Positions 13,355-32,498 are shown, counted from the first letter of the stretch. The stretch: 32,498 nucleotides of DNA from Desulfurococcaceae archaeon (GCA_038824035.1 JAWBBW010000016.1:1-32498); one strand, 5' to 3'. A program made the numbers and translations. Notes: generated from the sequence alone by a model not told the origin.

Positions 13355-14611
13355 TTAAATACTTCTGAGTACAAAGAGCCATAGGTAGACACAGCCAATT
13401 GTACATATGAAAGCCGATATCACGAATGAATTACCAGGACCGGTTAAGACATATAAGAAACCAGCCACCATGGATGCCATAGATGAACCGAGGTTTTCAA
13501 GCATCCTCTGTATACCGGTCGCCCTTCCTCTCACTTCACGGGGCAGGATCCTTGTAAGCAATGTGGAAATACCTGAGTTTATCACAGTGGATGATATCGC
13601 CTGTATGAGGAAAGCAGTGAAAAGAAATATTAATGGATTTGAGTCAATGAAATAGGGCAAGGCCATTAATATGAATGAGAAAGACGTGGCTACACACGTG
13701 AACAATATGGCTGTGTCTAACCTGAAAGACCTGTGCTTAACTAGGAGAAGCGATATCACTATGTTCCCCATTGTCGAGAAACTCGTTATAATGCCCCATT
13801 CAGGCTTACTTAAACCAAGCACGTCGATCGCATATATGGCTCCATAAGTGTTCAGGACTCCGTATACGAGTGGCCAGATCAGCACTGAGAAGACGTATAC
13901 TCTCAATGCCTTGTTCAAGATAGGCCTATATCCAGCTAACTCTAATATAAACTTGCTAAGCTCCTTATCACTTGGCCTAAAAGTCTCTTTCAACATCTTA
14001 AGCCTAATGAAGAACACTGTTAAGCTAATTACACCAGACGCTATGAAGCCTACTCTAACCCCTGTTACACCTAATTCCTCGTAGAGTAGTCCACCGACAA
14101 CGGGCATGAAAGTGCCTGGCAAAGCGGACGCCACATTGAGTACTAGGAATCCGCTGAACTCTTTTCCACGTGTCAGCGAATCCATTATGATCGCCGTGAG
14201 GGCTGGGGAGTAGAAATGCAATATTTGATCCACCACCCATATGATCGCTAGTTGTTTCCAATCCTGAGCAAGGGCGTAGAGAAATTGCGTTATAACTATG
14301 CCACCTGTGCCTATTACAATGACCTTTACCCTACCGAGGTAGTCGGTTAAAAACCCTCCTGGAATCAGGGATAACGCGAAAGCCAATATCCCAATACTCC
14401 TCATATATGCTATCTCGAGATCTGTCGCTCCCAGGTCCTTGGCATACTTGGCGAAGAAAGGATTGACCAGTGACCCGCTGAGTGAAAATAGAAACCACGA
14501 GAGAGCCATTAGACCTACATTACCAGCTAGCAATGCTCGGATCTCTGCGTAGTAATCAAAGATAAGTCCCTCGAGTTTTCTAAAAAAAGATCCAGGTTTC
14601 GTCTGAAACAC
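13355..14611 (-). CDS. MFS transporter
   Basis: About 12 TM segments; motif A GFLTDYLGRVK; C-half PREVRGRATG. Confidence 0.88.
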   Translation of the reverse strand: MFQTKPGSFFRKLEGLIFDYYAEIRALLAGNVGLMALSWFLFSLSGSLVNPFFAKYAKDLGATDLEIAYMRSIGILAFALSLIPGGFLTDYLGRVKVIVIGTGGIVITQFLYALAQDWKQLAIIWVVDQILHFYSPALTAIIMDSLTRGKEFSGFLVLNVASALPGTFMPVVGGLLYEELGVTGVRVGFIASGVISLTVFFIRLKMLKETFRPSDKELSKFILELAGYRPILNKALRVYVFSVLIWPLVYGVLNTYGAIYAIDVLGLSKPEWGIITSFSTMGNIVISLLLVKHRSFRLDTAILFTCVATSFSFILMALPYFIDSNPLIFLFTAFLIQAISSTVINSGISTLLTRILPREVRGRATGIQRMLENLGSSMASMVAGFLYVLTGPGNSFVISAFICTIGCVYLWLFVLRSI

Positions 14612-14624
14612 CTTGTTATAAGGA

Positions 14625-15902
14625 CTATACTGGCTCTCCTCTGAGAGCCTTTTCTAATAGCTCCTTCGCGTAGTCAAACCTGATCCTGCCATCCCTTATC
14701 ATGCGCTCAGCTATCCTGTCTATTAAATCGCCAGTCGCCCCGGCCATTATTGCGAGGTTCTTCGCGTGGAGCCTCATGTGGCCTTTCTGAATTCCCTCTG
14801 TAACAAGGGCTCTTAGAGCGGCGAGGTTTTGGGCTAAACCCACAGCGGCCATTACCTCGGCTAATTCCTTGGCACTCTTCACGCCCAGTATTTTCAGTGC
14901 AATCTTCGCCACAGGGTGGACTCTTGTAGCTCCACCAACGATCCCTACTTGTATTGGCAATTCAAGCATGCCTGTGAGATAGCCGTCCTCGACCTCCCAT
15001 GTACTGAGTGGTTTATAAACCCCGCTTTTAGCTGCATATGCATGGGCACCGGCCTCTATGGCCCTGTGATCCTGGCCTGTTGCCAGGGCAACGGCTATGA
15101 TGCCGTTCATGATGCCTTTGTTGTGTGTGACAGCCCTGTATGGGTCTACCTCGGCAATCACACTGGCTTCCTCTATTTTCCTCGCTATTTCCAATCCACC
15201 CACGTTTTCAACTGGTGTCTTGGCCCATGCCCTCACAATTCTCCTCGTTGCGTAGTTGGATATGATCCTCAGTCTCGCTTCACCACCTGTTATCTTCTCA
15301 AGTACAGGTGCTATTGCCTCCAACATGGTGTTAACGGTATTAGCCCCCATGGCGTCCTTGACATCGACGATCAGGTGAACAATTATGATGGGCCCTATCT
15401 TGCTGTCCACAACCCTTATTTCCAAGTCCCTTGGCCCACCCCCGTATTTCACTAACACCGGGTCTTGTTGCTTGGCGTGTTCGAGTATTTCATGTTTTGA
15501 TTCAATGATCTTGAGTGCTTTGTAATGTGGTGCATTAGCCTTCACTATGTGGACTTGTCCAATCATCTCCTGTTGGCCAGCCTCCGCCATTATGCCCTTC
15601 TCATATCTCAACATCTTAGCCCCATTACTCGCCGCCGCGACGACGCTTGTCTCCTCGATGACCATGGGGACCAGGTAATCCTTACCGTTTATGAGGAAAT
15701 TAGTGGCAATTGCGAATGGATAGGTCATTCCTCCAATCACGTTTTCTACCATGCTATCGGCTATTTTTTCCGGTAAATTGCCTAGATTCGACAATGTCTC
15801 CTGCTCATCGCTGGTGAGCTCGGCCCATTCCGCCACTATCCTCAACCTATCCTTGATCGGCAGTTTATAAAACCCCTGTATTCGGCTAGTTCTCTCGTCC
15901 AA
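14625..15902 (-). CDS. mvaA: HMG-CoA reductase, class II (bacterial/degradative type)
   Basis: ENVIG, EETSVVAA, DAMGANTVN, THNKGIMNG, GQDHRAIEA, EGIQKGHMRLH (class II flap His); GGTGAGG SD. Confidence 0.92.
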   Translation of the reverse strand: MDERTSRIQGFYKLPIKDRLRIVAEWAELTSDEQETLSNLGNLPEKIADSMVENVIGGMTYPFAIATNFLINGKDYLVPMVIEETSVVAAASNGAKMLRYEKGIMAEAGQQEMIGQVHIVKANAPHYKALKIIESKHEILEHAKQQDPVLVKYGGGPRDLEIRVVDSKIGPIIIVHLIVDVKDAMGANTVNTMLEAIAPVLEKITGGEARLRIISNYATRRIVRAWAKTPVENVGGLEIARKIEEASVIAEVDPYRAVTHNKGIMNGIIAVALATGQDHRAIEAGAHAYAAKSGVYKPLSTWEVEDGYLTGMLELPIQVGIVGGATRVHPVAKIALKILGVKSAKELAEVMAAVGLAQNLAALRALVTEGIQKGHMRLHAKNLAIMAGATGDLIDRIAERMIRDGRIRFDYAKELLEKALRGEPV

Positions 15903-15971
15903 AATAACCTCACCGTAAGTTATAAGAGAACTGGTGAAATATTAAAACTAGTCATACCGGGGCAGAGGATC

Positions 15972-16364
15972 ATGGTTCATGAATGGGCATTGGCAGAATC
16001 AATAATACTATACCTTCTCAGCAACAAGTACTTCAGGGTCAAGGAACTGAGGATCAGGATTGGGGCCTTGCAGTCAATAGACAAGGATATATTGGAATTC
16101 GGGATCAAGGAGTTATCTGGGGAGAATAATATATCAATCAATAACATAGTTTTCGAAGATGAACAGCCCGTTTTAAAGTGCAATACTTGTGGACATGAAT
16201 GGGCAGTGAACCCTGAGGAATTAGGCGAACACATCAAGGAGGCCATACACTTTATCCCAGAATCTATTTACGCGTTTGTCAAATGCCCTAAATGTAGCAG
16301 TGTTGATTACCAAGTAGTGAAGGGGAGGGGTATATCCAAGATCGAGGTGGTGCTCAACGATTGA
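15972..16364 (+). CDS. hypA: Hydrogenase nickel metallochaperone HypA
   Basis: N-terminal MVHEW (MHE-like Ni site); CxxC...CPxC Zn site; long Thermococcus-type insert (EAIHFIPE); KGRG. Confidence 0.9.
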   Translation: MVHEWALAESIILYLLSNKYFRVKELRIRIGALQSIDKDILEFGIKELSGENNISINNIVFEDEQPVLKCNTCGHEWAVNPEELGEHIKEAIHFIPESIYAFVKCPKCSSVDYQVVKGRGISKIEVVLND

Positions 16365-19312: not shown

Positions 19313-21277
19313 ATGAGGAAGATATTTCACAGATTAGCCAGCCTCGATGAAGCCATCAGAGCTGTGATCAACGCTATTGACTTGAAACCGCTTGGTGTCG
19401 AGGATATCGATGTTTTCGATGCCATTAACAGGGTTCTCGCAGTCGATGTATATGCCCCAATAGATCACCCGCCTTTCGATAGATCAGAGGTCGATGGCTA
19501 TGCCGTTAGGAGTGAGGACACGGCGTGGGCTGATGAACTATCGCCCATGAGACTTAGGTTAAAGGGGAAAGTGAGGATTGGTGAGTTTCCATCCATAGAG
19601 CTGAATAGTGGCGAGGCTATTGAAATAGCCACGGGCGCCATGATACCACGTGGATGTGACGCAGTTGTAATGGAGGAATATGTTGAAAAAAAGAATGGCG
19701 AAATATTGGTCTACAGGTCGATTGCGCCAGGCGAAAACATAGCTACAGCTGGTAGTGATATATCAATGGGGGATCTCGTGATACCGGCTGGCACTATTCT
19801 GAGAGAAGAACACATAGGGCTACTCGCCGGGCTTGGGTTCTCCAAGATAACTGTCTATAAGAGGCCGAGAATAGCGGTATACTCGATTGGCAACGAGTTG
19901 GCAAAGCGAGGTGAGGTGTTGAGACCCGGCATGGTGTATGACGTGAACGGTGCATTAATAACATCTTATCTAAGGTCTATGGGCGCAGTAGCAGTGTTCA
20001 AGGGGGTTTTACCAGATGATTACGGGGTAATAAGAGATGAGATCTACAGAAGCATTGTGGAATATGACATGGTGGTTACAAGTGGGGGTACTAGTGCAGG
20101 CGAGGAGGACATTATTTACAAGATCTTCGAGGAGATAGGCAATGTCGTAGTCCATGGACTTAGGACAAAACCAGGTAAACCGACAATAATAGCTGTTTCA
20201 TCAGGTAAATTACTAATAGGTTTACCCGGGTTCCCGCTTTCATGTTACATGGTCTTGGTAAGGGTCGTGAGGCCTATTATTGCGAGAATACTGGGTATTA
20301 GGGAAGAGGTCGATACAATACATGTGAAGTTGTCATTAAGTATTAGGAAACACATCGGCAAGACCTGGCTCATACCGGTCATTCTGGTTGAATCACGTGG
20401 AGAACTAGTGGCATACCCTGTATCGATGAGCAGTGGCAGTATATCACCACTGATCTACAGTGATGGATTCATTGAGTTAGATGAAAACGTGGACATAGTG
20501 GAGGAGAACACATTGGTGAGATTTCACCCATTTCGCAACTACATATCTCTGAATAGGCTCAGCATCATAGGTAGCAATGATCCACTGTTATTCGAGATAC
20601 TCAAGGAAACCGGGCTCATACATAGGGCAAGGGTTTTAAACGTAGGTAGCACTGCTGGTTGGAACTCCGTGGTGAGGGGTGAAGCGGATATTGCACCGAC
20701 GCATTTGCTTGACCCCGAAACAAGGAGGTATAATGTTCCTTTCCTTGATAAATACGGCCTAAGGGGCAAAGCTGTCATCATAAGAGGTTATGACAGGCTC
20801 ATAGGCCTGGTAGTAGCGAGGGGTAATCCAAAGAAAATAAAGAGCTTAGAGGACTTGTTGAGAGGCGATATCAGAATGGTTAATAGAAACAGGGGATCAG
20901 GGGCTCGCGTATTCCTAGACATGAAATTAAAAGAGATCTTTGAGAAAAAGGGCATATCCTTTGACAACGTGGAGAGAATTATAAATGGATATACATATGA
21001 GGTCAAGACACATACAGCAGTAGCAGTGGCTGTTAAACAGGGTAGAGCTGATGTGGGGATAGCTGTTGGCTATGTAGCGGATATGTATGGGTTAGATTTC
21101 ATACCACTGACATGGGAGGAGTACGATTTCCTCATACCTATGGATAGGTTGGAGAAGGGATTAGTGGCTATGTTTATCAATCACTTGAGGGATAAGGACC
21201 TATTGGCCAGGTTGATCAGATATCCAGGCTACTATAGGATACCGAGCGATATAGGGCTTGAGAGGCCGTTTGATTAG
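19313..21277 (+). CDS. moeA: Molybdopterin/tungstopterin biosynthesis protein MoeA fused to a C-terminal PBP (LysR-like substrate-binding) domain
   Basis: PPFDRSEVDGYAV, TGAMIP, SGGTSAG, KPGKP, GLPGFP motifs; C-terminal GSND, GSTAG, NRNRGSGAR, GYTYE..TH. Confidence 0.92.
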   Translation: MRKIFHRLASLDEAIRAVINAIDLKPLGVEDIDVFDAINRVLAVDVYAPIDHPPFDRSEVDGYAVRSEDTAWADELSPMRLRLKGKVRIGEFPSIELNSGEAIEIATGAMIPRGCDAVVMEEYVEKKNGEILVYRSIAPGENIATAGSDISMGDLVIPAGTILREEHIGLLAGLGFSKITVYKRPRIAVYSIGNELAKRGEVLRPGMVYDVNGALITSYLRSMGAVAVFKGVLPDDYGVIRDEIYRSIVEYDMVVTSGGTSAGEEDIIYKIFEEIGNVVVHGLRTKPGKPTIIAVSSGKLLIGLPGFPLSCYMVLVRVVRPIIARILGIREEVDTIHVKLSLSIRKHIGKTWLIPVILVESRGELVAYPVSMSSGSISPLIYSDGFIELDENVDIVEENTLVRFHPFRNYISLNRLSIIGSNDPLLFEILKETGLIHRARVLNVGSTAGWNSVVRGEADIAPTHLLDPETRRYNVPFLDKYGLRGKAVIIRGYDRLIGLVVARGNPKKIKSLEDLLRGDIRMVNRNRGSGARVFLDMKLKEIFEKKGISFDNVERIINGYTYEVKTHTAVAVAVKQGRADVGIAVGYVADMYGLDFIPLTWEEYDFLIPMDRLEKGLVAMFINHLRDKDLLARLIRYPGYYRIPSDIGLERPFD

Positions 21278-21726
21278 ATCCCTTGTCTAGCAAGTAGCTT
21301 GTTCACCTTGTAGAGAAACCTGCTGGTTTTCACAGCTTCGATTGAGATTTCCTTGATACCCCCTTTGTACACGATAAAATGCTTTCTACTACATTTCGAA
21401 CCAGTGATCTTGAATACTTCCTCCACCATCCAGTGTAATTGAGTACAATGCATACTGCCATCAATGGTTAATACGGACACTTCTTCATAACCATTACGCG
21501 CGATTATCCCGGCCAACTTGAAACCCAGCATATTCACGTGTTCGGCCTCGGGACATGCCGTTAAAACGATGTAACCCTCTTCAATCAGCTTTTTCACTAT
21601 ATCCGGGTGTTCTAGTTCAATACACCTGCTCGTAACAACGATCTTTTTCTTGCCACAAATGACCCTAGACTTGGCATTAATATCTATTAACCTGGGTAGG
21701 CTATACATGGGCACACCCGGGGTCAC
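21274..21726 (-). CDS. Conserved hypothetical Cys-containing protein, possibly Fe-S binding
   Basis: 150 aa; motifs SRC, TACPEAE and DGSMHCTQL resemble a stand-alone domain often annotated as 4Fe-4S ferredoxin-associated; no canonical CxxCxxC. Confidence 0.5.
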   Translation of the reverse strand: MTPGVPMYSLPRLIDINAKSRVICGKKKIVVTSRCIELEHPDIVKKLIEEGYIVLTACPEAEHVNMLGFKLAGIIARNGYEEVSVLTIDGSMHCTQLHWMVEEVFKITGSKCSRKHFIVYKGGIKEISIEAVKTSRFLYKVNKLLARQGI

Positions 21727-22648: not shown

Positions 22649-23071
22649 ATGGCAAATATAGTGTTAATTACACATGGTAAATACGGCGAAGGCTTAGTGG
22701 ATGCTCTCGCATTACTCCTAGGAGACGAGGCTATAAAAGGTATCCACGTGATTACACTGGGGCCTCTCGATTCTCCTGAATCCCTTTACGAAAAGATCAA
22801 GGATATTGTAAACGGGGTTGATCACGAGAAAGGCGTTTTAATACTAGTAGACCTGTTTGGAGGAACCCCTTCAAGAGTAGCGGCTCAATTGTTGTCAGAG
22901 GGCTTTAACGTCGAAGTTATATCAGGGGTTAATCTCCCAATGTTGGTGGAGATCGTATTACAACGGGATAAGACAGCTAAAGACCTAGTTGAGATTGCTA
23001 TTAGATCAGGCGTAGAAGGCATTGTCAATATTGGTGAAAAGGTGAGAAAAGCCCTGGGTAAAAAAGACTAG
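22649..23071 (+). CDS. PTS EIIA component, mannose/fructose/sorbose family
   Basis: ITHG (phospho-His), DLFGGTP, GVNLPML. Confidence 0.93.
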   Translation: MANIVLITHGKYGEGLVDALALLLGDEAIKGIHVITLGPLDSPESLYEKIKDIVNGVDHEKGVLILVDLFGGTPSRVAAQLLSEGFNVEVISGVNLPMLVEIVLQRDKTAKDLVEIAIRSGVEGIVNIGEKVRKALGKKD

Positions 23072-23075
23072 GATA

Positions 23076-24806
23076 TTAGCCCGCTGACAATATACCCAGT
23101 AGTCCGAGTATTACTCCTATCAAGAAATATATCGCCAGCACCTTGGTTATTGAGAGCCCTTTTCTATACATATAGAATGAGCCTAGTAAGAATATCAACG
23201 GTATTAGCCTCGGCATTATCATGTCTATTGCTGCCTGTATATCTATTGGCTGGGCTTCAGGGACAGCTATTTTCACTGGGACACTCACAGCTATATATGA
23301 AACCCCCAGGGCAGCTATTATCGCCACGGCGATCATCGATGCTATTCTCCTGATCATCTCTATCCTGCCACCCCTTATCACCGAGACCACGTTGAAGCCA
23401 TACCTATAACCCAGTTTCAATAGATACCAGCCAAGGGTCATTACCAAGGGGCACCATAGGATGAAAGCCACTATTGGCCCTAATGCACCGGCTGTCAGTG
23501 TTAACCCAGCTCCTATTCCAAAGGCTATTGGCCTCCACGTGAACCAGAATAAGCCATCTCCAAGGCCTGCCAATGGTCCCATTAAAGACGTCTTCAGAGA
23601 TCTAACAGTTTCCTGGTCTGCACCACCCTCTTCCACTGCCATGTTAACGCCGACTATCATGGCTGTCATCAATGGCTGTGTATTAAAGAACTCGTTGTGA
23701 AGTCTCATCCAGGATTTCAGCTCTTCTGGGTCTTTGCGTAGTTTTCTCTCCACATGGTTCATTACGAAGGCGTATGCAGTGCCTTGCATTCTCTCGTAAT
23801 TCCATGCCCATTGATCTGCAAAGGTTATTTTCAGATACGTCTTTATGAAATCGCTCTTGGTGAATACTTGGCTTGAGCCACTTTGCGGCGTGCTCGACAT
23901 GGTTGGCGGCGCTTGTAGTGCCTCGTAGAGCTCACGCCAGTGGATCACTAGGATCAGGCTCATGACCAGTAGTGTTATGCCAAGTATTGGTAACTTGAGA
24001 TAAGCGGCGAGGACATATCCAAGTATAAACCACGGTAACATGCCAGGGCCATATGTGAGTTTCAGTAACAGGCCTAGACCAACAGCCGGCATTAAGGCAG
24101 CGCCTACTCCAAGCGCTGATAGTATTTTCTGAAGTGCCGGGTTCTCCAATGAAACCCTAATGGTCTCCACGGCCGCCGGGCTCATGCCCAGTGCTGCGAT
24201 AGCCAATATGGGTATCATGTAGACCACAAACCACTGTAAAGAGCCGAGGAACGCTATTACGCCCAACCTCCCTATATTGCCCTTTTCAATCTCCCTATCA
24301 GCCCAGTGCGAGTATATAACACATCCAGCTCTCGCGCCCACGACTTCCAAGTACATGGCTAACATCCCAATAGGTATCGCTATGGCCATTAAAGTGCCGA
24401 GTTCAACGGATGTAACAGCTGTGTAGCCAAGTATCTTGGCAAACATCAATGACGTTATGGTTGCTATCACGGCGTTTGGCGCGGCTGCACCTCCGACGGG
24501 AAAGACGCCCAGATATATTAGCTCAAGCATGGCGCTAAGGGGGAGCGCTACCTGTGGTATGCCCAGTATTAATCCTATTATATTGCCAATTAACAAGGGC
24601 TCTGTTAATCCAAATGCATTATAACCCAGAAAAGTCAGCCCAGCTATGAGTAGCACTATTATTATGCCGAAAAGTTCAAGTGGTGATATCGGCGTAGAGC
24701 CGGTAACACCGGCTTGGGCTTCCACAACTCTTATGGCCACAGCTATGGCCAGGCATATAGTCAATGGTAGAAGTGTCTTGATCACACTATTTCTATGCCC
24801 ATGCAT
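23076..24806 (-). CDS. PTS fused EIIC-EIID permease, mannose family
   Basis: IIC part: EPL..G.IIG, LELIYLG, AIPIG, MPAVG.GLL. P/S/T-rich linker. IID part: WNYERMQG, FFNTQP, KTSLMGPLAGLGDGLFW, IDMIMPRLIPL. Start set at ATG 24806 (GGTGA upstream) instead of 24869. Confidence 0.92.
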   Translation of the reverse strand: MHGHRNSVIKTLLPLTICLAIAVAIRVVEAQAGVTGSTPISPLELFGIIIVLLIAGLTFLGYNAFGLTEPLLIGNIIGLILGIPQVALPLSAMLELIYLGVFPVGGAAAPNAVIATITSLMFAKILGYTAVTSVELGTLMAIAIPIGMLAMYLEVVGARAGCVIYSHWADREIEKGNIGRLGVIAFLGSLQWFVVYMIPILAIAALGMSPAAVETIRVSLENPALQKILSALGVGAALMPAVGLGLLLKLTYGPGMLPWFILGYVLAAYLKLPILGITLLVMSLILVIHWRELYEALQAPPTMSSTPQSGSSQVFTKSDFIKTYLKITFADQWAWNYERMQGTAYAFVMNHVERKLRKDPEELKSWMRLHNEFFNTQPLMTAMIVGVNMAVEEGGADQETVRSLKTSLMGPLAGLGDGLFWFTWRPIAFGIGAGLTLTAGALGPIVAFILWCPLVMTLGWYLLKLGYRYGFNVVSVIRGGRIEMIRRIASMIAVAIIAALGVSYIAVSVPVKIAVPEAQPIDIQAAIDMIMPRLIPLIFLLGSFYMYRKGLSITKVLAIYFLIGVILGLLGILSAG

Positions 24807-24952
24807 GTATTTCACCAGGACTAGGTTTGATATAAAGATGTTTAAATTAATAAACCTGATGTATAACATAACATGATCATATATCGATATGTACTAATAA
24901 TAACTATAAAAACATTGATCAACCTATCACGTATTCATCTTCATCAAGCGGT

Positions 24953-25453
24953 TCAGAGGATTCCTTTTTTCTGAAGTAATTGATAAAAATCCTGGGGTTG
25001 TTCATCTGGTAGCATTTGATATATAACTTTAATCCCCATTTCCCGCATTTCCTTGAAAGCATTGATCTCAGCCGGATCCACGGCGTAGTTCTTGACAACT
25101 ATTACACGCCCCTGTCTCCAAGCGGATTGACCAGCATTAACCCAGTTTATTTTCAAGCCACTTTCCTTTACGACTTTGAGACAATCATTTGCATTGGAAA
25201 CTATGATCATGATATTGACACCTGGCCTATCCCCGGAGCCTTTTCTCAGCTCATCGATGGCCTCTTGTACATGGAATACCCTGACAGTGGTATTGGGAGG
25301 GGCAAGCGCTATTTGCAGTTCCTTTAGAACAGGGTTTCTAGCTATTTTATCATCGACAACCCATATTTCGTTGATATTGTAATGTCTCACCCAGCCAATA
25401 GTCACCTGGCCGTGTATATACCTGTCATCAATCCTGATCAACTTGATCGGCAT
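24953..25453 (-). CDS. PTS EIIB component, mannose family
   Basis: RIDDRYIHGQV (phospho-His), VVDD..A, NAG, QMLPD. Confidence 0.94.
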   Translation of the reverse strand: MPIKLIRIDDRYIHGQVTIGWVRHYNINEIWVVDDKIARNPVLKELQIALAPPNTTVRVFHVQEAIDELRKGSGDRPGVNIMIIVSNANDCLKVVKESGLKINWVNAGQSAWRQGRVIVVKNYAVDPAEINAFKEMREMGIKVIYQMLPDEQPQDFYQLLQKKGIL

Positions 25454-25539
25454 TCAAACCAACTCAGCTTTAGCCAGATATATTATGAGGGAAATGGGGA
25501 TAAATATATCGGGATAACAGGAGTAGCGGTGTATTACCA

Positions 25540-26814
25540 GTGAGAATTGGATATGGTAAATCCATTATAACACCTACAAGCGGTGTTCATAGGCTTGCCG
25601 GTTACTTGAGGAGAAAAGAGCCATCTATGTGTATATTCGATGACATATATGTGAAGACATTATTACTGGAAACGATCGAGGACAATTTACTGGTTTTGGT
25701 CAGTGTCGACTTATTGGCAATAGATAACAACATGTTAGAGGATATGAGAAAGATAAGCAAGGGTTTAATAGGGAATTCACACGTGGTGATCACCGCGACA
25801 CACACTCATTCAGCCCCGATCTCCTTGTTTAAAGACATGCTACCGGGCATGGGCATGGCTGAGTTTGACCCTGAATACTATGAGCATTTCCTCTCCATGT
25901 TCGAGCGCTCATTGTTAAATTCCTATGAAAAACTAGGCAAAGGCGAGTGTTACTCGACAACGATCACGGTGAGCGGGGTAGCTACTAATCGCAATGACCC
26001 GAATACTCCGATCGACGACAAAGCAGTAGTGGTTAAATGCATTACCGGCGACCTAAAAGTGGGTTTATTGAACTACGGAGTTCACCCCACAGTCCTGGGT
26101 CCTAGTAATAAATGTGTGTCAAGGGATTTAGCCGGAGCAATCGAGGACTCATTAAGGAACAACACGGGAATAGAGTTCGTATTTATCAATGGAGCAGCGG
26201 CGGACGTGTCCACGAGGTTCACTAGGATAGAGCAGTCTTACAGCGAGGTCCTAAGGCTTGGATCGCTGTTCGCGAATAGCATTACGAGGTCATTGGGGCA
26301 AGTGCATTGGAGGAAATTAGTGGATGCTCCAATAGCGGTTAAAAAGGAGTCGTTGACCATGAGTGTGGATTCTGAGAAATTCTACAGAATAGCGAGGAAA
26401 CTCTACATTGAAAGGAAACTGGGCGGTGTTGTGGGGAAATTACCTGGTTTAAAGCGCGTTGTGGAGTCGATAGAGGAGGCTATTGAAGCATCTCAGTTGA
26501 TCGTGGAGAAACTGGGCAATATCAAGGAGATCTCTATAGAGGTATCGTCTTACCTGATCGGAAGGGTATTAGGCTTGATTGCTTTACCAGGAGAGGCTTT
26601 ATCGAAGATATCAATGGAATGCAGGGAGATCGCCGGCATAGACACGGTGTTCGCTGGATATGCGAATGGGTATTATGGATATTTCAGCGATAAGGCCGTT
26701 GTGAACACCTACGAGGACGTTATGACATTGTTCACTCATGGAGATGTTGGGAAATTATACGATTTGATCAAAAAACATTGCTCATGGTTAAACGACATGT
26801 CTAGGTCATTATAA
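25540..26814 (+). CDS. Neutral/alkaline ceramidase-like Zn amidohydrolase, unknown substrate
   Basis: LAGY, SVDLL, ATHTHSAP, NR, NYGVHPTVL, NGAAADVS, LPGE, GYANGYYGY motifs; no signal peptide. Confidence 0.78.
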   Translation: MRIGYGKSIITPTSGVHRLAGYLRRKEPSMCIFDDIYVKTLLLETIEDNLLVLVSVDLLAIDNNMLEDMRKISKGLIGNSHVVITATHTHSAPISLFKDMLPGMGMAEFDPEYYEHFLSMFERSLLNSYEKLGKGECYSTTITVSGVATNRNDPNTPIDDKAVVVKCITGDLKVGLLNYGVHPTVLGPSNKCVSRDLAGAIEDSLRNNTGIEFVFINGAAADVSTRFTRIEQSYSEVLRLGSLFANSITRSLGQVHWRKLVDAPIAVKKESLTMSVDSEKFYRIARKLYIERKLGGVVGKLPGLKRVVESIEEAIEASQLIVEKLGNIKEISIEVSSYLIGRVLGLIALPGEALSKISMECREIAGIDTVFAGYANGYYGYFSDKAVVNTYEDVMTLFTHGDVGKLYDLIKKHCSWLNDMSRSL

Positions 26815-27582
26815 TGGTTTTATCACGTTGAAGTATTTCTCGAGATATTTCAAGTTCTTTTCAATGCCGCCGGGCACGTTTGCACTGACCCAGATCTCTG
26901 GCTTGATCCCCCTTTCCACGAGGATCTCCGATGTCCTTATACAAAGCAATTGAAGTATATATGCATGAATGATCGTTGATACAGGAGCTACTTTCACCTC
27001 AACCCCTCTTATTTCGTAAATAGCATCGCCTGGTGGTATCTTGCTGTCTATGACCACGTCTACTACTTCATATAGTCTTTTCCCAAGAGAGTTATCCGGT
27101 TCACCGCTTTTCGAAAACTCCACTGACGTTATACCTATGGTCTTCAAGCCCATTTTCCTGGCCATGAAAGCCATTTCAACGGGTACGGCGTTTCTCCCCG
27201 ATGCGGATACGATTATTAAAACAGAATTTGGTAAAGGATTAATAGATCTCAACAATATCTCCGCGTACCCAGGTAAACGCTCCAGCAAAGTGCTTTTAAC
27301 AGCGCCGTTTAGCAATGAGAGCGATATGTCTAGAATTGGGTAGACCCTGGTCAATCCCCCCGCTCTGTAAAACATCTCTAATGCCATCATCATGGAATGG
27401 CCAGTGCCGAATACATATACTAGGCCGTTTCCCGTGATCGAGTCAGCTATGATCGACGCGGCTTTCTCGATGTTATCTCTCTCCTCTCCAATGATCCTCT
27501 CCATCAATGATATGATCTTTGATGTGAACTCCACATAGGGATCCGCATCGATCACCGTTTTTAGGGGGGATTTATCTCTCAT
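26809..27582 (-). CDS. SIS-domain sugar-phosphate enzyme of the UPF0309 (NagS-like) family
   Basis: FGTGHS, FYRAGGL, LER..GYA, SASGRN, GITS, PPGDA, WVSANVPGG motifs; ATG 27582 overlaps the end of nagA. Confidence 0.82.
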   Translation of the reverse strand: MRDKSPLKTVIDADPYVEFTSKIISLMERIIGEERDNIEKAASIIADSITGNGLVYVFGTGHSMMMALEMFYRAGGLTRVYPILDISLSLLNGAVKSTLLERLPGYAEILLRSINPLPNSVLIIVSASGRNAVPVEMAFMARKMGLKTIGITSVEFSKSGEPDNSLGKRLYEVVDVVIDSKIPPGDAIYEIRGVEVKVAPVSTIIHAYILQLLCIRTSEILVERGIKPEIWVSANVPGGIEKNLKYLEKYFNVIKPL

Positions 27583-28738
27583 ACACAATCACGCCGTTGA
27601 CAATGGTTTTCAAGACATTGAACCCTTCATCCAACACGATGAGATCAGCCCTATAACCCGGTTTTATATCCCCTATCTTGATGTCCAGCTCAATGCTCTT
27701 AGCAGGCGTTAAACTAGCCATTTTAGCAACGTCCACCAGGCTGTATCCCAGTTCCACGATATTTCTAATAGCTCTATCCATGGTGAGAGTGCTTCCGGCT
27801 AGTTTATCTGCGCCCACTAGTTTACACACACCTCTTTCTACACTGATCTTTAAACCACCCAGTTCGTAGACACCATCAGGCATATCAGTAGCGGCTATTG
27901 AATCGGTCACTAGGACAACTCTATCCGGCGAGGCATAATCTATGACCATTTTAACAACCCCTGGGTGGAGATGTATGAAATCCGCTATAAGCTCTACGAA
28001 AACCCCTCGTGCCTGTAAGAGGGAGAGAGCTATCCCTGGTTCCCTGTGATGTATACCTCTCATTGCATTAAATATGTGTGTTGCTTTTGAAATCCCCATT
28101 GCTATTTTGTTTAAGCCTGTTTCATAAGAGGCGTTTGTATGGCCAGCGCTGACAACTATGTTGTTCAACCTGGCATATGTTATTAGCTCGTCTATACCCT
28201 CGATCTCAGGTGCAATGGTTATTTGCCTAATGTTTCTACCAGATACCTCGATGTATTCTTCTAATTCCCTGATAGATGGTTTTCGTATGAATAGAGGATT
28301 CATAGCTCCCGGCATCTCCGGGCTTATATAGGGCCCTTCTAGGTGTAATCCCAGAAGCCTAGCACCATGGCTTGGCCTCCAAGAATCCTTGGCATCTTTA
28401 AAGGCTTTACAGGCCTTTAATAGGACATCGTGTGGTGCCGATACAGTTGTCGCGAGGAAGCCTGTGACACCGTGTCTTGCATAATGTGAAGACATTTCGA
28501 GGAGAACGCTTGGATCAGGGTTCATCGTGATGTCTAAGCCGCTTATACCATGTGTATGTGTATCAATGAGACCAGGTAGTAGTAATTGCCCCTCGAGATC
28601 TATTGATTCGCTAGTAGGCCCTTTGAACGGCTCTTTCCCCACGCTCTTTATAACGCCGTCCTCGATTACAACATATCCATCTTTGATCACCATATTGGGC
28701 GCAATAATTTTACAATGTCTGAACACGAGGACACTCAA
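27572..28738 (-). CDS. nagA: N-acetylglucosamine-6-phosphate deacetylase
   Basis: PGLIDTHTHG, GLHLEGPY, TIAPE, SAGHT, THIFNAM, IADFIHLHP, LVTD, LAGS motifs. Confidence 0.93.
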   Translation of the reverse strand: MSVLVFRHCKIIAPNMVIKDGYVVIEDGVIKSVGKEPFKGPTSESIDLEGQLLLPGLIDTHTHGISGLDITMNPDPSVLLEMSSHYARHGVTGFLATTVSAPHDVLLKACKAFKDAKDSWRPSHGARLLGLHLEGPYISPEMPGAMNPLFIRKPSIRELEEYIEVSGRNIRQITIAPEIEGIDELITYARLNNIVVSAGHTNASYETGLNKIAMGISKATHIFNAMRGIHHREPGIALSLLQARGVFVELIADFIHLHPGVVKMVIDYASPDRVVLVTDSIAATDMPDGVYELGGLKISVERGVCKLVGADKLAGSTLTMDRAIRNIVELGYSLVDVAKMASLTPAKSIELDIKIGDIKPGYRADLIVLDEGFNVLKTIVNGVIVYER

Positions 28739-28827
28739 TTTAAGCCCCGCTTCATCTATATTAATGTCCTAGCTAAAATACGCGAATAGGGTCAAACCCT
28801 CTATACCCATATTATGTTAAAGGTGTT

Positions 28828-29106
28828 TTGCAAGTGAGAACAATTGAGGTCAAGGTGATCAATAGATCGGGCCTACATGCTAGGCCAGCGGCTAGGTTCG
28901 TGCAATTGGCAATGAGGTTCAAATCGAATATAATGATCTGCAAGGAATCCAGTTGCGTTGATGCGAAGAATATTTTAAAGGTGTTATCGCTGGGCGTCGA
29001 TTGCGGTGACCTGGTCATCATAAAGACCAATGGACCAGACGAAGACGAGGCCTTGAAACACCTCTTAGATCTACTTCAGAACGTGTTGCCAAGCGAAGAC
29101 CGGTGA
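28828..29106 (+). CDS. ptsH: PTS phosphocarrier protein HPr
   Basis: GLHARPA (His15 equivalent), VDAKNILKVLSLG, GPDEDEAL. Confidence 0.95.
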   Translation: MQVRTIEVKVINRSGLHARPAARFVQLAMRFKSNIMICKESSCVDAKNILKVLSLGVDCGDLVIIKTNGPDEDEALKHLLDLLQNVLPSEDR

Positions 29107-29112
29107 TCTTAT

Positions 29113-30849
29113 TTGTCAACAGTGTTCAGGGGTATTCCAGTCTCAGAGGGTATAGTTGCCTCAGAGACGATTAAATACGGTTTGTCTACAACGTTACTCG
29201 ATGCCATAGCTGATTGTAAAGCCGGTGAGAATGAGGAGCAGAGATTACTTAATGCACTCGAGGTTTTCAAAGGCTACGTAGAAAAGGTGATGGAGATGGT
29301 AAATGAGAGTGAGAAAGAATTGTTACAGGCATATATCTTGATGGCAGAGGCCCTCGTTAACGAGTCCATTGAGATCGTCAGTAGCGAGGAAATATGTGGG
29401 GAACTCGCGATTAAACGTGTATTCGAGAAATACAGTGCCATGCTGAGGAGTGCTGGGTCAGGTTTGATCGCCATGAGAGAGGCCGATCTAAGGGAGATAG
29501 CTTTGATCCTGGCTAACAACATGATCTCTGGGGATTCTCACCGGGCTATAATGGAATTGAGGGATAAAATAATAGTCTCAGAAGAATTGACGCCGATGGC
29601 TTTCATGGGATTGATCAGGGCTGGCATCAAGGGGCTTGTTACGGTGAAAGGAGGATATACATCGCATATAGCCATATTGGCTAGATCTCGTGGGATACCA
29701 TATGTTGTGATCCCATCGCTCAATATTGAGGAATTTCCGAGGAGTGCAAGGGGTGTTCTCGATGGATTTGAAGGCGCACTCATAGTTAACCCAGATATTG
29801 ATGTGTTTTACCGTTATCAAAGGAAATCAGATATCGTGAATAGACTCATGGATACATTGAGGAGAAGCGCTCTTGGAAAGGCGAAAAGTCTCGATAACAC
29901 GGAGATCGATGTTCTCTGCAATGTAGGTGACTTGGAAGAGGCGAGATCAGCGTTGATGCAGGGCTGTGATGGCATTGGCGTGTTCAGGGTCGAGTTTCTC
30001 TATGTATCTGGCTCATTGCCTAGTGAGAATGCGTTGTTCAACGCGTTCGCTAAGATCGCCCAGATATATGATATGAAACCCGTTGTCATAAGAGCCCCCG
30101 ATCTCGGCGCGGATAAGCCATTGCCATTTTTTAGGATAAGGGAGGAAAATCCCGCTCTGGGCTTACGTGGGATCAGGCTGTTACTAGAATATAGAGAGGA
30201 GTTGCTCAAACCCTTTCTCAGGGCTTTTCTCAGGGCATTATCTAGCCATGGTAATCTGAGATTACTAATACCCATGGTAACTAAGCTGGGCGAGGTATAT
30301 GATTTCATAAATATCTTGGAGAACACGGCATCCGAGATTATAGGCGTTGATGTATTGAATAAATTGGCTATCGGAGTGATGATCGAGACGCCTGCTGCAG
30401 CGCTAATTATCGACAAGTTCGCCGAAATACCGTTCATAAGGTTTGCAAGTCTTGGAACAAATGACCTTGTCCAGTATACGCTGGCTGTTGATAGGAATAA
30501 TCCTAGAATAAGTTATCTATACAATGAACTAGAGCCATCTGTTCTAAGGCTTATTAAGCAAACAGTGGATTTGGCTGGTAAAAAAGGCTTACACCTGGAG
30601 ATATGTGGTGAAATGGCAAGTAGGCCCATGGCCATACCGGTTATCCTATCACTAGGCATTAGGACGCTTAGTGTAAACCCTAGATATGTTGGTATCGTGA
30701 AATACCTCGTAAACAACATCAATATATCCCGTATCTCGGAGAACCTGGCAACAGTCCTGGATGTGGAGGATTCTAGCAAGGTATTGGAGAAAGTAAGGGA
30801 GATTTACAAGGAGCATGGATTGATCGATATACTCGAGCTATATGGCTAG
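29113..30849 (+). CDS. ptsI: PEP-protein phosphotransferase, PTS enzyme I
   Basis: GGYTSHIAILARS (phospho-His), GIGVFRVEF, DLGADK, EENPALGLRGIR, MIETPAA, SLGTNDLVQY.LAVDR, ICGEMA. Confidence 0.95.
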   Translation: MSTVFRGIPVSEGIVASETIKYGLSTTLLDAIADCKAGENEEQRLLNALEVFKGYVEKVMEMVNESEKELLQAYILMAEALVNESIEIVSSEEICGELAIKRVFEKYSAMLRSAGSGLIAMREADLREIALILANNMISGDSHRAIMELRDKIIVSEELTPMAFMGLIRAGIKGLVTVKGGYTSHIAILARSRGIPYVVIPSLNIEEFPRSARGVLDGFEGALIVNPDIDVFYRYQRKSDIVNRLMDTLRRSALGKAKSLDNTEIDVLCNVGDLEEARSALMQGCDGIGVFRVEFLYVSGSLPSENALFNAFAKIAQIYDMKPVVIRAPDLGADKPLPFFRIREENPALGLRGIRLLLEYREELLKPFLRAFLRALSSHGNLRLLIPMVTKLGEVYDFINILENTASEIIGVDVLNKLAIGVMIETPAAALIIDKFAEIPFIRFASLGTNDLVQYTLAVDRNNPRISYLYNELEPSVLRLIKQTVDLAGKKGLHLEICGEMASRPMAIPVILSLGIRTLSVNPRYVGIVKYLVNNINISRISENLATVLDVEDSSKVLEKVREIYKEHGLIDILELYG

Positions 30850-31128: not shown

Positions 31129-31801
31129 TCCCTGTTTAGATGGAAAGTTAACCACATCCCCGGCTAGCATTCTAGTTATTCGCTTCAAGCCTCGTTTATT
31201 ATGATGATGGTTAAGATCTGTATCCGCTGAGCCTATTGTTCAGCCCGTCAGCCACGATCGGTATACAACCCGCTGGCATGAGTTTCGATCCAAACGTTGT
31301 TGAAAAGAAGTTCGTTGTCTCTATGGCTGGGGCATTTACGAAGTACATTCATAGTCTGGCATTTTTCGATACAGGTGTGATAGATATCACACTGACAACG
31401 CTGCAAGGAACATCGAAGATCGCTGACATCTCTGCAAGCGGCAGGCGATGAGGAGATTCCAGTCATAATCATTGAGATGGGGCAGGAGATCGAAATCAAA
31501 AGTAGCAATGGAACTACTCCGTCATCAATATTTGATCAGGTATTATTACCTCAGTTCAATAAATCTATACAAGTGGTGGACTCAACTCGCTTATAGCTGA
31601 AACAATATATGTGGGGCTTTCACAGATCTGTATCGAATCGATATCTCTTCCACAATTTACAGCGTGATGCCCGTGATCGTTGTGATTTATATCGATATCA
31701 ATATCACTAGTGTTTTCGAGATACGTGCCAGGAATGGTTGAGAGAATATTTTTGCTTCTCTCCTATATTATTCTCGAAGGTATATTATTCTAGGTGTGTG
31801 G

Positions 31802-32498
31802 ATGAAAGCTTTGACGATCTTATCGCTTGTGCTCGTTGCCCTGGGCTTCGCTATTGCTCACGCTCACAGTGTTTACAACGTTATCGATGCCCAGCGTGCG
31901 TTATTATTTTTGAGATCACAATATATCGAGGAAGCCGGATTACTGAGAGCATCTGTAAGAACATATCCAGACAATATAACAATCTACATAGCGAACGACA
32001 ACATCCTCGCATCGAGAGCCCTCGCTGTCTTGGGAGACAGGGATCTATCCAGTAGAATTCTCACGAAGCTTGACAACGAATATGGGGGAGGCTTTAACGG
32101 TAGAATAGAGATACTTTTCGGCGTTGACATACCAGACATGTTCTACACAACGAAGTACGAGTACATTGGAGAAGTGAATGGCTATGTCATACTCTACGAG
32201 AAACCTGGAGACCAGGTTATCGAGGACTGGTATGAATACGCTGATCTACTCGTGTATCGTGCACTGGATCGGTTGCTCTGGGGCTCTAAACCACAAGCTG
32301 AGCTCCTGTTCTTGAATTTAACAAGGATGTGGGATGGATATGGGTTCAGAGATAAAGCATACAAGGCTACAGGCGTGTACAATACGTACAAGTGCGCGCT
32401 CTTCATCTACCTTTACCGCGCTCTTGATTCAGCTGGATCAGATGTTGTCAAAGACTACGTTTACATCAGGAACAAGTGCTTAGAAGTAGTTGTTCTCG
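31802..32498 (+). CDS. Secreted/surface hypothetical protein, 3'-partial (not in the ORF track)
   Basis: Manual translation MKALTILSLVLVALGFAIAHAHSVYNVIDAQRALLFLRSQY...IYIANDN...DWYEYADLL...MWDGYGFRDKAY...YNTYKCALF is open to the window end (232 codons); AGGTG SD-like motif upstream; N-terminal signal peptide. Confidence 0.85.
   Translation, partial: MKALTILSLVLVALGFAIAHAHSVYNVIDAQRALLFLRSQYIEEAGLLRASVRTYPDNITIYIANDNILASRALAVLGDRDLSSRILTKLDNEYGGGFNGRIEILFGVDIPDMFYTTKYEYIGEVNGYVILYEKPGDQVIEDWYEYADLLVYRALDRLLWGSKPQAELLFLNLTRMWDGYGFRDKAYKATGVYNTYKCALFIYLYRALDSAGSDVVKDYVYIRNKCLEVVVL

Follow-up and report, generated by a model that had tools for sequence, protein, structure and literature searches.

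The window analyzed here is a stretch of 32,498 nucleotides from the genome of a Desulfurococcaceae archaeon of hot springs (GCA_038824035.1, JAWBBW010000016.1:1-32498). Open reading frame (ORF) calls and Pfam and NCBIfam profile searches of the window proteins revealed an island of eight genes (22649-30849), in which a gene for an N-acetylglucosamine-6-phosphate deacetylase (NagA) lies next to one for a single-SIS protein of the UPF0309/PRK02947 family, the family of NagS from Streptomyces coelicolor (SCO4393). Judged from sequence and gene context, the SIS protein may be a MurQ-like lactyl etherase of N-acetylmuramic acid 6-phosphate (MurNAc-6P) that feeds NagA, within a mannose-type phosphotransferase system (PTS) island for cell-wall amino sugars; we give this reading an even chance of being correct.

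NagA (388 residues; 27572-28738, minus strand) scored 339.2 bits with TIGR00221 (cut-off 225.65). The SIS gene (259 residues; 26809-27588, minus strand) matched PF13580 (SIS_2) with an E-value of 4.2e-45 and NF002805 (PRK02947) with 281.1 bits (cut-off 135), residues 20-257 being aligned to positions 6-244 of the 247 in the model. The nagA stop codon TAA (27574-27572) fell inside the SIS frame, and the SIS start, TTG at 27588 or ATG at 27582, gave an overlap of 17 or 11 nucleotides; the two genes are translationally coupled. An earlier reading of this DNA from its sequence alone (the sequence-only reading) had described this overlap, which was confirmed, and the motifs it quoted were all present (GHS 63-65, YRAGG 74-78, ER 103-104, GDA 187-189, and SAN 235-237). 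On the other side, the SIS gene was convergent with the gene of a short, neutral-ceramidase-like amidohydrolase (424 residues; 25540-26814, plus strand; N-terminal part of PF04734, E = 7.9e-15), with an overlap of 6 nucleotides. No regulator gene adjoined the SIS gene, whose neighbors were nagA and the ceramidase-like gene.

The other five genes encoded the PTS. HPr (28828-29106, plus strand) matched PF00381 (E = 5.9e-28) and TIGR01003 (83.7 bits against 47.9), and enzyme I (EI; 29113-30849, plus strand) matched TIGR01417 (376.8 bits against 341.7). The enzyme II (EII) components were an EIIA of the mannose family (22649-23071, plus strand; PF03610, E = 7.3e-24), whose best NCBIfam match, AgaF, reached 97.5 bits, under the cut-off of 130; a fused mannose-family EIIC-EIID of 597 residues in a single frame (23076-24869, minus strand; PF03609 at residues 69-305 and PF03613 at residues 337-594); and an EIIB of the sorbose/mannose family (24953-25453, minus strand; PF03830, E = 2.2e-38). 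The mannose-family PTS was complete, with all six domains giving near-full-length Pfam matches in open frames and with EI and HPr exceeding the NCBIfam cut-offs. EIIC and EIID were encoded by separate genes in the bacterial loci compared (L036, L038-L041).

Over its full length, the SIS protein matched NagS (PDB 9eol; E = 1.8e-44) and BH3325 of Bacillus halodurans (3cvj; E = 5e-42). Its AlphaFold model (mean predicted local distance difference test score 92.5) was superposed on both structures with a template modeling (TM) score of 0.88-0.89 and a root-mean-square deviation of 1.3-1.5 Å. The TM score was 0.89 for NagS, at 37% identity, and in the range 0.88-0.95 for BH3325, at 35% identity. 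BH3325, the closest solved structure (E = 2.2e-78 to the family profile), differs from the window protein in being a structural-genomics entry, whose name, "putative phosphoheptose isomerase", is putative only. By sequence and predicted fold, the window SIS protein is genuinely homologous to NagS.

Conservation of the NagS residues

NagS (9eol, 9f7o, and 9f7v) and the window protein share the family, the single SIS domain, the catalytic residues, and the phosphate-binding serines, and in both cases there is a tie to NagA: NagS acts together with NagA, and the window SIS gene is coupled to nagA. A HMMER alignment and a 71-sequence family alignment showed that the window protein keeps the equivalents of NagS H53, S54, R64, S91, E94, S119, S121, D179, and N228; its residues H64, R75, S99, E103, D188, and N237 correspond to NagS H53, R64, S91, E94, D179, and N228, respectively. 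The catalytic His, Arg, Glu, and Asp of SCO4393 were all kept, and only the backbone-contact position G227 was changed, to alanine. In the 71-sequence alignment, H53, R64, E94, and D179 were invariant in 39 of 39 archaeal members and in 31-32 of 32 bacterial ones. Since these four essential residues are invariant throughout the family, they mark the family and do not diagnose dehydratase activity.

In the part of the NagS report available (PMC12680351), NagS dehydrates N-acetylglucosamine 6-phosphate (GlcNAc-6P) across C2-C3 to give 6P-chromogen I, and it also turns over N-acetylmannosamine 6-phosphate (ManNAc-6P). It binds these two sugars and not glucosamine 6-phosphate (GlcN-6P), fructose 6-phosphate (Fru-6P), Glc-6P, or N-acetylgalactosamine 6-phosphate (GalNAc-6P), and it requires both the N-acetyl group and the 6-phosphate (PMC12680351). 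According to the same text, the NagA of S. coelicolor can remove the acetyl group from 6P-chromogen I in vitro, but NagS and NagA form a toxicity route, the product of which is a toxic imine and not a catabolic intermediate, with no onward enzyme known (PMC12680351). The NagS orthologues described there share 58.7% identity or more, occur only in Streptomycetaceae, and invariably lie beside a divergently oriented dmdR1, whereas homologues from Clostridium (33% identical), Paenibacillus (26%), and Acidothermus (36%) neither dehydrated GlcNAc-6P nor complemented (PMC12680351).

The window protein, with 37% identity, a host in the Thermoproteota, and no dmdR1 neighbor, falls outside these orthologues. 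It also differs from NagS in lying in an archaeal catabolic PTS operon, at a distance at which the homologues in the available text are inactive as dehydratases. The sequence-only reading had proposed a new pathway in which the SIS protein is a true NagS that converts GlcNAc-6P to 6P-chromogen I, after which NagA, the amidase, or both would lead through an enamine or imine to a 3-deoxy-2-keto sugar phosphate, bypassing Fru-6P. The homology, the conserved catalytic and binding side chains, and the coupling to nagA on which that proposal rested all stood, the deacetylation of 6P-chromogen I by S. coelicolor NagA (in the available text) and the recurrence of the extra amidase beside family members speak in its favor, and in a small number of bacterial loci an aminotransferase came after the family member (DegT, 3 of 146 neighbors). 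The pathway itself fared worse. The same residues are invariant throughout the family, the homologues with 26-36% identity outside Streptomycetaceae were inactive both in vitro and in vivo in the available text, the dmdR1 synteny said there to be universal for NagS is missing, and the product of NagS and NagA in Streptomyces is toxic. Furthermore, neither an aldehyde dehydrogenase nor a 2-keto-3-deoxy-6-phosphogluconate (KDPG)-type aldolase was detected among the island proteins in the Pfam and NCBIfam searches, a conventional route to Fru-6P is available through a GlmS paralogue that is a candidate deaminase (see below), and related genes lie in MurNAc contexts. We therefore regard a dehydratase of the NagS kind as quite improbable here. 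The claim that either function would be new for archaea holds only in the sense that there is no assay, as the family is common in Thermoproteota, with UPF0309 in 31 genomes among the 151 sampled from the order. Literature searches found no paper on UPF0309, nor one on a PTS together with GlcNAc in Thermofilum pendens.

Murein-sugar clusters in related archaea

Among the 31 genomes with UPF0309, 30 also contained NagA, the exception (G094) being 81% complete. To describe the neighborhoods, 40 archaeal UPF0309 genes were compared (the window, L007-L012, and L076-L107; four of the 39 order-wide places were left out, and some of the 40 loci may represent the same genome twice, as L012 is G038:C68). 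Within 8 kb of these 40 genes, NagA was found 21 times, AnmK 9, an AP_endonuc_2 TIM barrel 8, GH84 7, EI 6, the ceramidase-like protein 5, EIIA-2 5, the GlmS paralogue 5, and a PBP4B-like hydrolase 5 times. AnmK occurred in 14 of the 151 genomes, 13 of which had UPF0309, and in 9 genomes it lay within about 6 kb of UPF0309; the archaeal AnmK exceeded the NCBIfam AnmK equivalog cut-off (430 against 387). The exo-muramidase NamZ occurred in 8 of the 151 genomes, 7 of them with UPF0309. MurQ (TIGR00274) was above its cut-off in none of the 151 genomes, and the three weak matches lay in GlmS frames.

In L078 and L080, the gene order was GH84, SIS, PBP4B/YfeW-like, AnmK, NagA, GlmS paralogue, EIIB, EIIC-GAT, EIIA2, EI, and HPr. 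NamZ was added in L091, L092, and L096 (identified on L091, with ORFs of the same size in L092 and L096), and L092 also had a BadF-type kinase as well as a binding protein of the oligopeptide type. Transport in these clusters was of the Gat PTS type or by an Opp-type ATP-binding cassette (ABC) transporter. Thus, from their gene content, related Thermoproteota (L078:7523-19713, L080, L081:3809-11209, L091, L092, and L093) carry apparently complete murein-sugar catabolic clusters. In E. coli, murQP is followed by yfeW, to the type of which AmiE belongs. Such neighbors are parts of murQ operons in bacteria, where NamZ generally accompanies MurQ, as in the B. subtilis operon murQ-murR-murP-amiE-nagZ-namZ, according to the part of the source available (PMC8054146). 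Because the archaeal clusters contain AnmK or NamZ and lack MurQ, UPF0309 is the only candidate there for the step on MurNAc-6P, and the presence of the gene in such clusters suggests that it encodes an etherase acting before NagA. A literature search found no paper on archaeal MurNAc catabolism. A further point for this reading is that in L085 a LarA-type 2-hydroxyacid racemase gene lay between nagA and the SIS gene.

In the proposed route, EI, HPr, and the mannose-family EIIA, EIIB, and EIIC-EIID would import and 6-phosphorylate the sugar, MurNAc and probably also GlcNAc. The UPF0309 SIS enzyme would open the ring, Glu103 (NagS E94) would abstract H-2, and β-elimination of D-lactate from O-3 followed by re-addition of water would give GlcNAc-6P and D-lactate, which is the MurQ reaction. 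The co-translated NagA would deacetylate GlcNAc-6P to GlcN-6P, and a glutaminase-dead GlmS paralogue encoded on another contig (C2) would convert GlcN-6P to Fru-6P and ammonia. The reaction proposed for the window enzyme would differ from that of NagS in being lactyl-ether cleavage with re-hydration and not net dehydration; NagS would be a member limited to the C2-C3 elimination, acting on GlcNAc-6P and setting the alkene free. By the mechanism of Hadi and Tanner, dehydration of the NagS type reportedly runs the hydration half-reaction of MurQ backward. Gene content, coupling, conserved residues, the relationship to NagS, and occurrence and neighborhoods in other genomes are observed, whereas all substrates and reactions, as well as the roles of the GlmS paralogue and of the amidase, are inferred.

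The reading we favor for the locus is a variant of the PTS-driven catabolism of MurNAc and GlcNAc, with a NagS-family enzyme in place of MurQ and a glutaminase-dead GlmS paralogue in place of NagB. It would share with the E. coli and B. subtilis types the PTS uptake with phosphorylation, GlcNAc-6P, NagA, and deamination to Fru-6P. It differs from E. coli (murQ-murP, nagE-nagBA) and B. subtilis in its archaeal host and in a mannose-family PTS with fused IIC-IID instead of the glucose-family MurP; MurQ, NagB, and MurR are missing, a Cys1-less GlmS candidate is encoded elsewhere, and a ceramidase-like amidase is added. With MurQ (TIGR00274; 4lzj, 1nri, and 4s12), the window protein shares the SIS fold and, as proposed, the reaction and the place in the pathway, between the PTS, AnmK, or MurK on one side and NagA on the other. 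Genes that usually accompany murQ, those for AnmK, a hydrolase like YfeW or AmiE, NamZ, and an N-acetylglucosaminidase, also lie near relatives of the window gene. By sequence, however, it is not a member of the MurQ family: the MurQ profiles gave 16.1 bits against 302 (TIGR00274) and 18.1 against 168 (NF003915).

A wider picture, which we hold tentatively and rate somewhat short of even, is that NagS/UPF0309 is a MurQ-independent archaeal lactyl etherase, that hyperthermophilic heterotrophic Thermoproteota have complete bacterial cell-wall-sugar pathways, that the window island is a minimal, mobile, PTS-only version of them, and that Streptomyces NagS is a derived form that releases the alkene. 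The complete pathway would run from PTS or ABC uptake through AnmK, NamZ, the AmiE-like hydrolase, and GH84 to the UPF0309 etherase, NagA, and the GlmS paralogue. If true, this would assign a role to a widespread family (1814 matches at E ≤ 1e-10) that carries no annotation beyond "SIS domain-containing protein", the single member of which assayed as active is NagS, and it would explain the inactivity on GlcNAc-6P of the NagS homologues outside Streptomycetaceae. It would also mean that archaea catabolize murein sugars they do not make, by way of a PTS that is rare in archaea. Lactyl etherases other than MurQ are of interest in bacteria too, for example in MurQ-less mycobacteria, for which an "unidentified lactyl etherase" is postulated in the available part of PMC13691567.

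Phylogeny and bacterial members of the family

In a midpoint-rooted tree (FastTree, LG), the archaeal UPF0309 genes formed one clade (support 0.97), divided into a divergent subclade of six members with S91A, S121Y, and N228H (support 1.0) and a main clade (0.83). A clade of 12 leaves (0.92) included the window gene and L007, which are 92.5% identical, and contained genes linked to PTS, NagA, or GlmD-like genes as well as isolated genes. This clade lay inside one of 20 leaves (0.84) with the AnmK-linked L078, L080, and L088-L090, and the latter inside one of 27 leaves (0.99) with the NamZ/GH84/AnmK group. The archaeal contexts were of at least five types: AnmK/NamZ; GH84 only; AP_endonuc_2 with an SSF transporter and a NagA paralogue; PTS with NagA; and isolated. 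Members of the divergent subclade (L085, L099, L101, L104, L106, and L084:2623-5583) were always located beside an AP_endonuc_2 TIM-barrel protein and usually beside an SSF transporter, and the NagA paralogue found with them was only 36-38% identical to the window NagA. The divergent subclade probably has a different substrate.

The island itself recurred outside the taxonomic family of the host. L077, from another family of the order, had the same eight-gene island (SIS 61%, NagA 59%, ceramidase-like protein 50%, and IIC-D 68% identical by BLASTP, the last, at 14291-16000, being likewise fused), whereas three genomes of the window's genus (G063, G103, and G142) lacked nagA and the SIS gene, G063 having EI and a GlmD-like protein. 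Within the window's taxonomic family, L076 had EIIA2-SIS-NagA-EI-HPr and an EIIC-GAT 63% identical to that of the AnmK cluster L078, a shared PTS component that connects the PTS-NagA loci with the AnmK clusters. The presence of the island in L077 and its absence from the three congeneric genomes suggest that it moves as a unit and is horizontally mobile.

Among bacterial neighbors (146 scanned, 30 loci), a ROK kinase (10) and a BadF-type kinase (9) were the commonest, and members of the family were most often preceded by one of the two. The MurK of C. acetobutylicum is of the BadF type, and this order of a BadF or ROK kinase and UPF0309 resembles MurK-MurQ, which was counted in favor of the etherase reading. 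Rarer neighbors included NanE (3 loci), DegT, GH84, GH20, CE4, and the ceramidase-like protein. Clostridial carriers often had two tandem UPF0309 paralogues (genomes G175, G191, G206, G226, G257, G266, G282, and G291; loci L027, L036, and L038). A complementarity between UPF0309 and MurQ in bacteria was considered and rejected, MurQ being present in 4 of 5 Paenibacillaceae carriers and in 1 of 5 others. In an Oscillospirales-like sample of 151 genomes, UPF0309 occurred in 22, MurQ in 18, and both in 8 against about 2.6 expected when kinship is ignored. As the family thus coexists with MurQ in many bacteria, the bacterial substrate probably differs, and bacterial members probably act on other, related substrates.

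These two bacterial results weigh against an etherase role, and so do several further observations. MurQ was not found within E ≤ 1 of the family profile, for which GmhA and the SIS domain of MurR ranked first, and in fold MurQ tied with GmhA in a second tier at TM scores of 0.5-0.6 (MurQ 0.55-0.59). A MurNAc-specific neighbor was missing for all members of the 12-leaf clade to which the window gene belongs, so that the assignment is made by phylogenetic bracket only (supports 0.84-0.99); the neighbors that were found there, an FGGY kinase, a RuBisCO-like protein, a radical SAM protein, glycosyltransferases, and an encapsulin, were judged unrelated. The window thus holds, of the context on which the role is based, the PTS and NagA only, AnmK, NamZ, and the hydrolases being seen in clade relatives. 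In the host genome, tblastn did not find AnmK, GH84, LarA, or a BadF-type kinase, and a family search did not find AnmK or NamZ. The best EII matches in NCBIfam, all below threshold, were of the GalNAc, galactosamine (GalN), and mannose types, and we know of no mannose-family PTS for MurNAc. In addition, the available part of PMC12680351 names no assay of a family member with MurNAc-6P. The fate of D-lactate was uninformative, as the host had no FAD-type D-lactate dehydrogenase and one D-2-hydroxyacid dehydrogenase.

The diversity of contexts raises the alternative that the SIS protein converts another N-acetylhexosamine 6-phosphate (HexNAc-6P) to the NagA substrate or salvages a by-product, which we consider unlikely but worth real weight. 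It could be a lyase for another 3-O-substituted HexNAc-6P, a ManNAc-6P/GlcNAc-6P 2-epimerase, or a hydratase by which 6P-chromogen I formed by heat would be converted back to GlcNAc-6P. In addition to the five or more archaeal context types, there are several more in bacteria, the co-occurrence with MurQ and the common tandem paralogues there fit this alternative, and NagS also turns over ManNAc-6P in the text available. However, no neighbor names another substrate, the NanE genes beside the family gene in three bacterial loci argue against a redundant 2-epimerase, and salvage of the chromogen would leave the mesophilic bacterial members unexplained.

Deamination of glucosamine 6-phosphate and other island genes

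For the last step of the proposed etherase route, a deaminase was sought in the host genome (1.33 Mb, 29 contigs, 99.67% complete). As the sequence-only reading had noted, no NagB, GlmD, or AgaS was found in the island (no match to NF041128, NF046059, or TIGR02815 at E ≤ 0.01), and a search of the genome for nagB and glmD found no stand-alone one; PF01182 (NagB) had no match in the whole genome or in the 151 genomes of the order. The only PF01380 proteins of the genome were two GlmS-like proteins (the first being the canonical GlmS, with MCGIIG at its N-terminus), a 6-phospho-3-hexuloisomerase, and a PGI/PMI. The second GlmS-like protein (contig C2, 147295-149130, minus strand; L046:1498-3315) has the N-terminus M/L-GGIF, in which Cys1 is replaced by Gly, and the canonical HNG motif reads GDG. 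We take the residue roles to be those of E. coli GlmS, with Cys1 as the glutaminase nucleophile.

Such GlmS paralogues, with 39-62% identity, were found in 49 of the 151 genomes, and Gly was at the Cys1 position in all N-termini read (29 of the 30 loci fetched, plus L010, L011, and L081-L083). The paralogue was present in 34 of the 51 NagA-positive genomes, tracking nagA where UPF0309 was absent, and in 16 genomes, including complete genomes of 2-3 Mb from family f13, it lay within about 400 nucleotides of nagA. Its sequence and distribution make the Cys1-less paralogue the likely and most economical candidate for the GlcN-6P deaminase, combining a GlmD-like isomerase domain with a dead amidotransferase domain. 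In the host, its flanking genes, one for a tRNA synthetase of class I (Trp/Tyr type) and one ORF without family, offered no functional context. The absence of nagB from the cluster, from which the sequence-only reading had argued for an unusual route, should therefore not be taken as absence of a deaminase, which is likely encoded elsewhere in the genome. A literature search on GlcN-6P deaminase, GlmS, and NagA gave nothing archaeal and no description of the GlmS paralogue among the matches listed. The paralogue may answer the question of how GlcN-6P is deaminated in NagB-less Thermoproteota.

Stand-alone GlmD-like proteins (open frames of 328-447 residues) occurred in 23 genomes, 17 of which also had UPF0309, and in L008, L010, and L011 the GlmD-like gene lay beside nagA and the SIS gene. 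Since UPF0309 co-occurs with these deaminase candidates, the SIS enzyme appears to accompany them and not to replace them, and with other candidates present it is not needed for the deamination step. These data bear on the possibility that the SIS protein is itself the missing hexosamine-6-phosphate deaminase or isomerase, an analogue of NagB, GlmD, or AgaS in an ordinary PTS-NagA-deaminase pathway for GlcNAc or GalNAc. The nagA-SIS layout mimics nagA-nagB, no NagB was found in the 151 genomes, and the EII components resemble GalNAc/GalN types. Two nearly complete genomes, G029 (99%) and G037 (97%), had NagA and UPF0309 with no GlmS paralogue or GlmD-like protein at the thresholds used, and the bacterial kinase-SIS pairs could be a GlcN kinase and a deaminase. 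On the other hand, the SIS protein has one SIS domain in 259 residues, with neither the NagB fold nor the tandem SIS domains of known deaminases, and the AnmK/NamZ clusters would be left without a role for it. This alternative, which the sequence-only reading had also raised, is further weakened by the binding data for NagS, which in the text available takes GlcNAc-6P and neither GlcN-6P nor Fru-6P; together with the GlmD-like proteins that accompany UPF0309 and the paralogue that tracks nagA in its absence, this makes a deaminase very unlikely.

The ceramidase-like protein matched the neutral ceramidases of PDB 4wgk and 2zws over residues 3-200 only. Such genes recurred in L007, L077, L082, L083, L105, and L107 and in the bacterial L015, L021, L026, and L036, next to either UPF0309 or the Cys-less GlmS paralogue. 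At L082:1699-4911 and L083:15292-18426, the gene directly after that paralogue, in the same orientation, was ceramidase-like (28% identical to the one in the window), an order that ties this amidase family to amino-sugar metabolism. Our best guess is that the protein is a candidate amino-sugar, muramyl-peptide, or N-acyl amidase.

The PTS was scarce in the order, EI being found in 9 of the 151 genomes, 6 of which had UPF0309; in G010, G078, and G122, EI was clustered with nagA and the SIS gene. The flanks of the window island consisted of housekeeping genes, including those for MoeA, a helicase, HMG-CoA reductase, and HypA. At its borders were two ORFs with no Pfam or NCBIfam match, one at 21274-21726 (minus strand, 150 residues) and one at 31796-32497 (plus strand), the latter encoding at least 234 residues with a hydrophobic N-terminus and continuing past the end of the window.

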